64,000 bases of DNA, taken from NCBI GenBank assembly GCA_048938105.1, contig JBHLMN010000003.1, positions 320,001 to 384,000 of the forward strand. Reading direction: 5' to 3'. The position numbers were made by a program, and so were the translations under genes. The notes below the pieces were generated by a model. The model was not told the DNA's origin. It made no database searches and saw nothing but the letters and a program-made list of their open reading frames with translations. Positions 59,188 through 60,817 of the stretch are shown piece by piece; position 1 is the first letter of the stretch; the number at the start of each line of letters is the position of its first letter. The DNA comes from Promethearchaeota archaeon (GTDB lineage Archaea > Asgardarchaeota > Heimdallarchaeia > Hodarchaeales > Hodarchaeaceae).

Positions 59188-59487
59188 CTACCCAGCTGTT
59201 GATGCTAATATTTCCAAGAGTAGCCTAACAGAAAAACCAATTACCAACATCACAAAACCATACCCAAAGCAGATGAGGAACACAGGTAAGAACGCATCAG
59301 ATTGTGTTACATCCAAGATGAGATTTGTAGGAAAGTAAGATAAAACTGCAGCTCCAATAACAGCAATTAAAATTGAACCACCAATAAAAATTATTATTTC
59401 TACAATTGTTAATGGTTCATCTTTGGGATCTATTTCGGTTTCTTGGGTACCATCCGTTATTTTTGGTGTTTTATCATTATCGTTCAT
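59188..59487 (-). CDS. Small two-TM membrane protein
   Basis: Two hydrophobic helices; likely start is MNDNDK (59487) or 59496, because the track start (59511) lies inside an IS-end hairpin. Confidence 0.55.
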   Translation of the reverse strand: MNDNDKTPKITDGTQETEIDPKDEPLTIVEIIIFIGGSILIAVIGAAVLSYFPTNLILDVTQSDAFLPVFLICFGYGFVMLVIGFSVRLLLEILASTAG

Positions 59488-59495
59488 AAGAATCA

Positions 59496-59913
59496 TCGCA
59501 AGGAAACCCACTACTTTAGTGGTGGGAGGAATTACGAGTAATAGGGAGAGAGGTGGTTCTCACACCGTTAGACGAGTAACCATACTCTCGGAATTAATTA
59601 AATTGATATTGATTTTAAATTTTCCTAGTTATTGTTTGAAAGCGGTCTAAAACCTTTTTAAATGTGTTTTATGGACAAAACAATTGGCATCCCTGAGATC
59701 CATCTTATTGTATAAGGCAATAAGGTAAGGCACTCACCTATTTGTAGGTGAGAGAGACGGTTGAAGCGATCTTGTCAAGCGATGCACTTTACACCTATCG
59801 CATAATGGTATATCCGTTTTGCGGAGGCTGTCCGTCAATCAGCCTAATGTAGCGGTACTCTACCCCTGTAGTTGCTAGCTACAAGCCAGCGAATTGATTC
59901 GGTGGTAATTGAC
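59496..59913 (+). mobile_element. Non-autonomous IS200/IS605-family remnant (PATE/MITE-like) without tnpA or tnpB
   Basis: Left-end-like hairpin CCCACTAC-TTTA-GTGGTGGG (59507-59526); second hairpin CTCACCTA-TTTG-TAGGTGAG (59733-59752); right-end-like ...CTACAAGCCAGCGAATTGATTCGGTGGTAATTGAC ending at 59913; left boundary uncertain. Confidence 0.65.
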
Positions 59914-59935
59914 ATCTACTATTCATCCTGCCTTT
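59775..59935 (+). ncRNA. Putative TnpB-type omegaRNA/reRNA scaffold plus flanking guide
   Basis: Stems AGGCTG/CAGCCT, TGTAGC/GCTACA and GCCAgCGAAT/ATTCGgTGGT; loop GTCAAT (59834-59839) is complementary to terminal ATTGAC (59908-59913); about 19 nt then a T-rich tract; 5' end uncertain. Confidence 0.55.
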
Positions 59936-60094
59936 TTTCTTTTTCTCATTATTTTAATTCTAGGTAAATGATTTGGAAATATAGTATTAAGTGATTATCA
60001 TTTCTATTAAGTTCTTTAATAACCATTCTGTGCTACAAAGTTTGTTCGATATTTTTTAGGATGTATGAAATTGTGGAAATAAGAGAGATAAATC

Positions 60095-60817
60095 ATGATC
60101 TACAAAGAAAATCTTGAACTGGCGCTAGAAAATGTTGGACGTTATGAACAATACAAATTTATAAGAGCGTGGGGGATTGTCAGTATAATCGTAGGGTTGA
60201 CAAGGTTTTTCTTGGCCTTTATCATCGAAATTTTCTTAACCTGGTTTGTTATTCGTGATCTGTTTAATTTTTCAAGATCTGGTGCAATTTTTTTGGGATT
60301 CTTGAAATCGTTCATTCAAGTTTTTACTCTCATTTTATTAGCTATCATATTCTTCTATAGCTATATTTCTGTAAGAAAGACCATTTTTACAGAAAATCAA
60401 CTAATTTCTCAACGAATAATTAATCTTGGTTTAGCTTTGATAATTTTATATTTATTTGTATTTGTTTTCAGAATTCCTGGGAGTACATATCGAATAGACT
60501 TCATAGGTGTCCTTCTTTGTTATTTTTTGCTTAATAGAAGAACAGAAAATGATTTTAAGGAATTATTATATCAAGGAATTACCCTTTTCCTTGTTCTAGC
60601 TTTTAATTTTGTCTGGCAATTTATTTACATCCTCACTTTTTTGAATTTCAATATTGATATGCCACGTAGTTCAAACGATTTAGCCATTCCAGTCTTTATG
60701 CTCTCTTATTTTATTATAAATTTCGCTATAGCTGCGATTTATGTTGGAACTGGATATTTGTTAATAAAAAAGGCATCGAGAGTTTTGGAAGGAGAAAATG
60801 ATTCTTCAAGGGTTTGA
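60095..60817 (+). CDS. Hypothetical multi-TM membrane protein
   Basis: 240 aa, about 6 hydrophobic helices; overlaps the downstream HTH gene. Confidence 0.7.
   Translation: MIYKENLELALENVGRYEQYKFIRAWGIVSIIVGLTRFFLAFIIEIFLTWFVIRDLFNFSRSGAIFLGFLKSFIQVFTLILLAIIFFYSYISVRKTIFTENQLISQRIINLGLALIILYLFVFVFRIPGSTYRIDFIGVLLCYFLLNRRTENDFKELLYQGITLFLVLAFNFVWQFIYILTFLNFNIDMPRSSNDLAIPVFMLSYFIINFAIAAIYVGTGYLLIKKASRVLEGENDSSRV

Follow-up and report, generated by a model that had tools for sequence, protein, structure and literature searches.

The DNA considered here lies in a window of 64,000 nucleotides (C14:320001-384000 of a 5.85-Mb assembly, the host genome G000; positions below are those of the window), between an ORF on the minus strand (59188-59488) and a plus-strand gene at 60095. 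A preliminary description had proposed a stand-alone guide-RNA gene for TnpB, or for a TnpB-derived regulator, in this interval. The structured stretch is instead the right-hand part of a 425-bp mobile element without a gene of its own. When relatives were searched with the surrounding 2.5 kb, query positions 1090-1514 were absent from the sister species G003, in which the flanks are contiguous. The empty-site junction there reads ...TCGTTCAT/ATCTACTATTC..., that is, TTCAT/ATCTAC in G003 against TTCAT[425 bp]ATCTAC in G000. Because exactly that stretch is missing between contiguous flanks, the element (hereafter the mini) is assigned to 59489-59913 on the plus strand, with a 1-nt ambiguity in the alignment gap. 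The empty-site comparison suggested at the outset thus supplied both exact ends (59489-59913) and the transposon-adjacent motif (TAM), TTCAT, directly 5′ of the mini at 59484-59488 (plus strand). It also disposes of the idea of a domesticated guide-RNA gene, since the scaffold is the right end of a complete element that has a left end and whose insertion is lacking in G003.

Comparison of G003 with G000 shows that the mini was inserted directly 3′ of TTCAT without target duplication, and its termini, AAGAATC... and ...AATTGAC, form no terminal inverted repeats; these three features are hallmarks of the IS200/IS605 family. TTCAT also lies 5′ of the left end in three of four full-length tnpB elements and in three of four close minis, the motifs flanking other copies being TTCAT, TTTAT or TTCAC. 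Subterminal hairpins at 59507-59526 (left) and 59886-59905 (right) align with the ends of tnpB elements. The left one, followed by a conserved AGGAATT (together 59507-59533, plus strand), is present in all minis with compensatory changes in its stem, and its distance from the TAM is identical in the mini and in full-length tnpB elements. The latter share a common left-end hairpin and then GGAGGAATT, about 45 nt past TTCAT, which is the layout seen at 59484-59533. The longest ORFs within the mini are of about 34 aa, tblastn with TnpB detected only a 23-residue remnant, and the mini is taken to be non-coding because indels among its copies are not multiples of three. Positions 59489-59913 are very probably a protein-less IS200/IS605-family derivative of the tnpB-only insertion sequences of G000, of the kind known as palindrome-associated transposable elements (PATEs).

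The two hairpins of the mini differ in sequence type, the left (CCCACTAC...GTGGTGGG, 59507-59526) being unlike the right (CCAGCGAAT...ATTCGGTGG, 59886-59905); the full-length elements of G000 have the same hairpin type at both ends. Hairpins of the left-end type of the mini occur elsewhere, at the right end of a tnpB in MAG BC1 and next to a Y1 tnpA in G074 (L040:420-449; L049 around 1500), and on this account the mini looks chimeric.

Four DNA metagenome runs contain the mini and other right-end copies, with contigs that part exactly after 59913 or 59914; no joint across the mini, corresponding to an empty site, was seen in these runs, although rare alleles would not show up in contigs. No RNA run was listed as containing the stretch. 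In another study, a mangrove metagenome has a contig that agrees with the mini at all of 160 nt (window 59697-59856), and other contigs from that source carry right-end copies with other flanks.

tnpB-linked relatives and the omegaRNA scaffold

As first noted, there is no tnpB in the window, nor is there a tnpA: Y1 TnpA (PF01797) is absent from the whole of the 99%-complete G000 genome. The reading of the structured stretch as a TnpB-type omegaRNA scaffold without an adjacent tnpB was borne out by its homology to the 3′ ends of three intact tnpB genes. Searching for copies attached to tnpB, as had been advised, BLAST and nhmmer returned three in G000 (C4:158842-159050, C14:229285-229493 and C39:66812-67024), so the reservation that related copies downstream of tnpB might be lacking falls away. 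Each overlaps the last 125-130 nt of an ORF of 387-388 aa, and all end in GGTGGTAATTGAC. In the three encoded TnpB proteins Pfam recognises OrfB_IS605 and Cas12f1-like_TNB, and alignment with solved structures of TnpB and Cas12f shows that the RuvC Asp/Glu/Asp residues and a CxxC zinc finger are kept. The peptide resembling a TnpB C-terminus that had been read from the mini is a genuine remnant, 15 of 23 residues being identical to residues 346-368 of the G000 TnpB, but the reading GLSVNQPNVA was wrong by one residue and should be replaced by RLSVNQPNVAVL. More distant TnpB-like sequences in G000, 25-31% identical to the TnpB studied here, lie at C14:392481-393131 (about 8.5 kb past the end of the window), C59:806-1456, C64:32774-33091 and C13:10364-10549.

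The omegaRNA core (59799-59905, plus strand), homologous to the tnpB 3′ end and right end, consists of four consecutive stems, A (59799-59823), B (59825-59845), C (59848-59883) and D (59886-59905), all on the plus strand. Together with a pseudoknot these match the consecutive stems originally proposed. The pseudoknot joins GTCAAT in the loop of stem B (59834-59839) to the last six bases of the element, the right-end terminus ATTGAC (59908-59913), both on the plus strand; direct reading confirms this complementarity and its positions. Folding of the plus strand over 59680-59945 gave z = -3.6, with none of 200 shuffles as good, against z = -2.0 for the minus strand, and G+C is 0.46 in the structured stretch compared with approximately 0.30-0.35 around it. 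Rfam contained no family reaching its gathering score, and at E values up to 10 returned only chance-level matches.

Covariation places the structure of the scaffold beyond chance. Among 15 close copies the four stems and pseudoknot pair in 93% of cells and 17 pairs have changed on both sides, a level of support reached by none of 500 shuffles; the pseudoknot, including the terminal ATTGAC, is invariant in this set. A covariance model was then made from the mini and the tnpB-linked copies, leaving out the pseudoknot, and was used to search 82 genomes of the class. It scored the window copy at 130.5 bits and allowed 26 copies to be aligned, in which 90% of cells pair (26-41% in slid controls) and 29 of 39 pairs have changed on both sides, matched by none of 500 shuffles; these figures carry the caveat of an alignment fitted to nested stems and of sequences that are mutually related. 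Addition of the distant copies also supplied the pseudoknot covariation that had been sought through a covariance model: pairing is 97% across the 26 copies and two of its six pairs show compensatory change on both sides, the halves reading ATCAGT/ACTGAT in G004 and GTCAGT/ACTGAT in G080. In stem B, AGGGCU/AGYCCU is replaced by AGGCUG/CAGCCU in the minis, a compensatory swap, and stems A and B are thus kept without coding constraint. Several pairs are mostly G-U wobbles. The window copy lacks, in stem C, an extension of 26-29 nt present in the tnpB-linked copies, and has a single G-G mismatch in stem D.

The sequences of stems A and B in the mini differ from those of every tnpB-linked copy found in the 82 class genomes. 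No tnpB-linked parent with the mini-type stem B (GGCTG...CAGCC) was found in these genomes or in the species collection, a search in which three copies from G060 lay at contig ends with their upstream context missing. The contigs concerned of G060, a genome from another family (C225, C597 and C624; loci L065, L074 and L081), begin or end inside a mini-type scaffold with stem B GGCTG/CAGCC, which suggests an assembly-breaking repeat, and since an RLSVNQPNV frame is readable the copies could be tnpB-linked parents. In a small sample, the genomes with intact minis (G000, G014, G005 and G080) all have a related tnpB, and none was found in G007, whose mini is degenerate.

PF01797 was detected in 10 of the 82 class genomes, in one of which (G074) it adjoins a left-end hairpin 91% identical to that of the mini. 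Since G000 has no Y1 TnpA, its copy of the mini is probably immobile at present; this absence bears on present mobility and not on the classification as PATE-type. A fragment of Y1 TnpA (profile positions 3-61) adjoins a tnpB element of the mini-related family (L026/L071; G012:C99:20268-20438). The tnpB family to which the mini belongs probably once comprised tnpA and tnpB, and so was of IS605 type rather than purely of IS1341 type.

Gene-less relatives, the upstream region and the flank

Four to five gene-less copies occur at differing loci in four genomes of the genus (G000, G014, G007, and G005 with two). Those at other loci are 68-85% identical to the mini across the full 425 bp and share its architecture, with unrelated flanks. 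The G014 mini is 85% identical and copy a of G005 74% identical, both preceded by TTCAT; copy b of G005 (68%) follows TTTAT and has a damaged pseudoknot loop; and the degenerate mini of G007 follows TTCAC and has a mutated terminus. By blastn, detectable similarity between the mini and full-length elements is confined to mini positions 8-45 (the left end) and 305-425 (scaffold and right end), the central 260 bp giving none. Short remnants consisting of the right end only were found at L028 and L033. In G080, from another family of the class, there are at least five near-identical related minis of about 350 bp, of the same layout and at different loci. Three of these (L068, L075 and L080, on contigs C54, C8 and C10) run for about 350 bp and end at locus position 1619, and in all the G080 minis TCATGA and then two variable bases stand in front of the identical sequence. 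The covariance-model search of G080 found no tnpB-linked omegaRNA of the family of its minis; one TnpB there is 37% identical.

Part of the region that separates the ends of the mini is itself conserved. The TATA-like sequence first noticed upstream of the scaffold is present, as ctttttaaat at 59654-59663, and its position is conserved among the minis. Within it TTTTTAAAT (59655-59663, plus strand), which holds its place in five genus-level minis, is a candidate archaeal promoter for a scaffold RNA. In four of the five, about 23-30 nt separate the box from the first conserved stem downstream of it; the G014 mini has a 14-nt deletion between box and stem. Downstream, RNAalifold predicts a structured 5′ domain (59686-59785, plus strand) in which a closing stem encloses hairpins at 59702-59726 and 59733-59752, and when it was run on four minis, pairs of this domain were found changed on both sides. 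The second hairpin sits between AAGGCAC and AGAGAGACGGTT, a module also seen, with other stem sequences, in the minis of G007 and G080. The same module of AAGGCAC, hairpin and AGAGAGACGGTT, recognised there by eye, also occurs within tnpB, approximately 555 nt upstream of the right end, where it encodes KGTRS...RERRF.

The hairpin inside tnpB is found at C4:158850-158915 of G000 and in the equivalent region in C39 and C14; its closing stem reads CUCGAUC/GGUCGAG in most copies and CUCGUUC/GAACGAG in that of G004. Either an RNA element or a coincidence of codons may account for it, the latter because it coincides with two CGA-containing codon runs.

Immediately past the element, the 19 nt at 59914-59932 (plus strand) and the T-tract from 59933 read as first reported. 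The would-be guide is, however, ancestral target DNA: in G003 it is contiguous with TTCAT, and the guide-sized flank is therefore the ancestral flank of the insertion. It is unique in the G000 genome, and there is no second target in that genome, beside TTCAT, at up to four mismatches over 20 nt. Viral contigs gave 27 exact 16-mer matches to the flank, a number that by a rough, uncomputed estimate is near chance level for the size of the collection; none has TTCAT in front of it or continues beyond the 16 nt. The suggestion that this flank guides TnpB to some other target is accordingly not sustained by any second match beside a TAM, whether in the genome or among viral contigs.

A role for the T-tract as a designed terminator, and with it its place in a guide gene, was rejected: it is host sequence, found also at the empty site and absent beside both G005 minis, and only one other mini has such a tract beside it. 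Over 59933-59940 the T-rich stretch differs from the empty-site relative (L012 around 1520-1545) by a 5-nt indel and several substitutions, reading AATAATTCTTTC there and TTTTTTC in the window.

Possible roles of the mini

In IS605, TnpA moves the element, and TnpB with an omegaRNA derived from the right end cuts the TAM-flanked empty site (Karvelis 2021, PMC8612924; Meers 2023). According to Meers et al. (2023, bioRxiv 10.1101/2023.03.14.532601), omegaRNAs are frequently encoded by PATEs and would depend on TnpB supplied in trans. The overall best explanation of the present locus, and one we hold to be probable, is that it is a PATE-type mini whose omegaRNA serves TnpB in trans. Such use is suggested by the intact resident TnpBs with their TTCAT, the apparent structural selection on the scaffold, and the co-occurrence of tnpB with intact minis. 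An RNA of approximately 250 nt would start about 25 nt downstream of the TATA-like box, near 59686, and run through the 5′ domain and the scaffold into the flank. TnpB from the three intact full-length copies (C4, C14 and C39), which share the same TTCAT, would load this RNA in trans, and the complex would then cut an element-free allele at TTCAT followed by ATCTACTATTC... (59914-59932). In line with the homing model of IS605 TnpB, such a cut would help the mini to be retained or copied back; a Y1 TnpA would be required for movement as such.

Taken by itself, the proposal that the mini RNA is made and is used by TnpB we regard as evenly balanced. Several observations count against it or qualify it: the family is low in copy number, with one mini in G000; the extension of 26-29 nt is missing from stem C and stem D is mismatched; the G014 mini has its 14-nt deletion downstream of the TATA-like box; such strings abound at a G+C of about 33%; and the mini RNA may not suit the resident TnpBs, its stems A and B differing from those of all tnpB-linked copies found in the 82 class genomes. 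Moreover, with no TnpA and hence no excision, there is at present nothing on which homing could act.

A serious rival, if a distinctly less probable one, is that the mini is an inert fossil, in which the hairpins are only single-stranded DNA signals for TnpA and the scaffold is a leftover of the tnpB 3′ end, with no functional RNA. The lack of TnpA and the single copy in G000 are what would be expected of a fossil, as are the truncated stem C and mismatched stem D, the decay of copy b of G005 (68%, with its damaged pseudoknot loop) and of the G007 copy with its mutated terminus, and the right-end-only remnants at L028 and L033. TnpA, however, needs only the subterminal hairpins, and yet four stems, a pseudoknot and a 5′ domain have been kept by compensatory changes after coding was lost. 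The preponderance of G-U wobbles in several pairs fits a single transcribed strand, the TATA-like box is conserved in position, and the near-identical minis in G080, of which there are at least five, point to recent activity of such elements.

It is improbable that the main effect of the mini is on its neighbours, by coming between the minus-strand ORF (59188-59488) and its native upstream region and by driving or terminating transcription towards the plus-strand gene at 60095. The insertion does abut the ATG of the minus-strand ORF, the CAT of TTCAT being its start codon, and the candidate promoter points towards 60095; but such an effect would be incidental to a single insertion, and it leaves the conserved architecture at unrelated loci unexplained. 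The ORF encodes a conserved membrane protein of 100 aa, and its native upstream region has been displaced by 425 bp. In G000 its frame can extend into the left end of the mini as far as a GTG at 59511 (59188-59511).

A domesticated stand-alone guide-RNA gene, serving TnpB or a nuclease-dead regulator of TldR type at a fixed host target, is the least likely of all: for it speak the scaffold without adjacent tnpB, the candidate promoter upstream and T-tract downstream, and the distant TnpB-like genes in G000; against it, the locus is polymorphic and empty in the closest relative G003, the left end is complete, the guide is ancestral flank and unique in the genome, the flanks of other copies are unrelated, catalytic residues are intact in the closest TnpBs, and the T-tract is host sequence absent beside two G005 minis. 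Neither a guide conserved at the same locus across species, nor a nuclease-dead TnpB, nor a TAM-adjacent match to a promoter was found, and nothing points to the TnpB-derived regulator that had been suggested, the related TnpBs retaining the catalytic D/E/D.

Beyond the trans-acting use of TnpB that we prefer, it is tempting to suggest, albeit tentatively, that the minis of Heimdallarchaeia are an old, self-maintaining selfish lineage consisting of guide RNA only, with its own promoter, a 5′ domain taken from an internal segment of tnpB, and TnpA and TnpB acting in trans. If this were so, the hairpin module inside tnpB could have a function as an RNA element in the native transcript of that gene.

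Comparison with known systems

PATEs derived from IS605/IS1341-type elements are known from Haloquadratum walsbyi (Dyall-Smith et al. 2011, PMC3119063) and from Geobacillus stearothermophilus (Meers et al. 2023, bioRxiv 10.1101/2023.03.14.532601). Like them, the mini encodes no protein and lacks inverted terminal repeats and target duplication; the palindromes near its ends are related to those of resident tnpB elements, a target motif of 4-5 nt stands at its 5′ end, and its insertion is strain- or species-specific; like the PATE HqIRS71 it keeps a disrupted part of the tnpB C-terminal coding region. It differs from the described PATEs in that its host is an Asgard (Hodarchaeota) archaeon, that the approximately 260 bp between its ends show no detectable similarity to full-length elements but for one short tnpB-internal module, that it includes a TATA-like box conserved in position and a 5′ domain of structured RNA, and that its left-end and right-end hairpins are of different sequence types.

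The precedents for non-coding RNA and for regulators are more distant. In Halobacterium salinarum, sense-overlapping transcripts (sotRNAs) arise at the 3′ end of IS1341-type tnpB (Gomes-Filho et al. 2015, PMC4615843). They provide an archaeal precedent for a candidate non-coding RNA from tnpB 3′ end sequence, with the difference that sotRNAs lie inside an intact tnpB, whereas the coding part of the mini is gone and its transcription would need its own upstream promoter. TldRs are nuclease-dead, TnpB-like repressors with guide RNAs (bioRxiv 10.1101/2023.11.30.569447). The analogy drawn in the preliminary description was that of a TnpB-type guide scaffold not used for transposon homing; the mini departs from TldR systems in that its guide is the insertion flank, its locus is polymorphic, catalytic residues are kept in the related TnpBs, and there is no fixed host target.

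The scaffold itself is closest to that of ISDra2-type omegaRNAs, for which a cryo-EM structure has been published (PMC10097598). It lies at the right end, overlapping the tnpB 3′ end in the full-length relatives of the mini; the position of its guide is the DNA flank immediately past the element, and a 5-nt T-rich TAM lies 5′ of the target. The ISDra2 TnpB omegaRNA (reRNA) reportedly has several stems and a pseudoknot that uses bases just before the guide, and the mini likewise has multiple stems and a pseudoknot with bases in that position. In contrast to ISDra2-type RNAs it has no tnpB in cis, lacks one stem extension, and has no Rfam match.

The mini amounts to a natural omegaRNA cassette, in Hodarchaeota, that stands apart from its nuclease and is cleanly delimited, its ends being exact, its empty site and TAM established and its fold backed by covariation. 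It offers a compact variant of the scaffold, with stem C shortened, and it supports a modular view of IS605 components, in which the ends are for TnpA and the RNA is for TnpB. Since it is a PATE-type derivative that keeps a TnpB guide-RNA scaffold, and omegaRNA-carrying PATEs have already been described in archaea and bacteria, it plainly exemplifies a known kind and is neither a new system nor a new mechanism.
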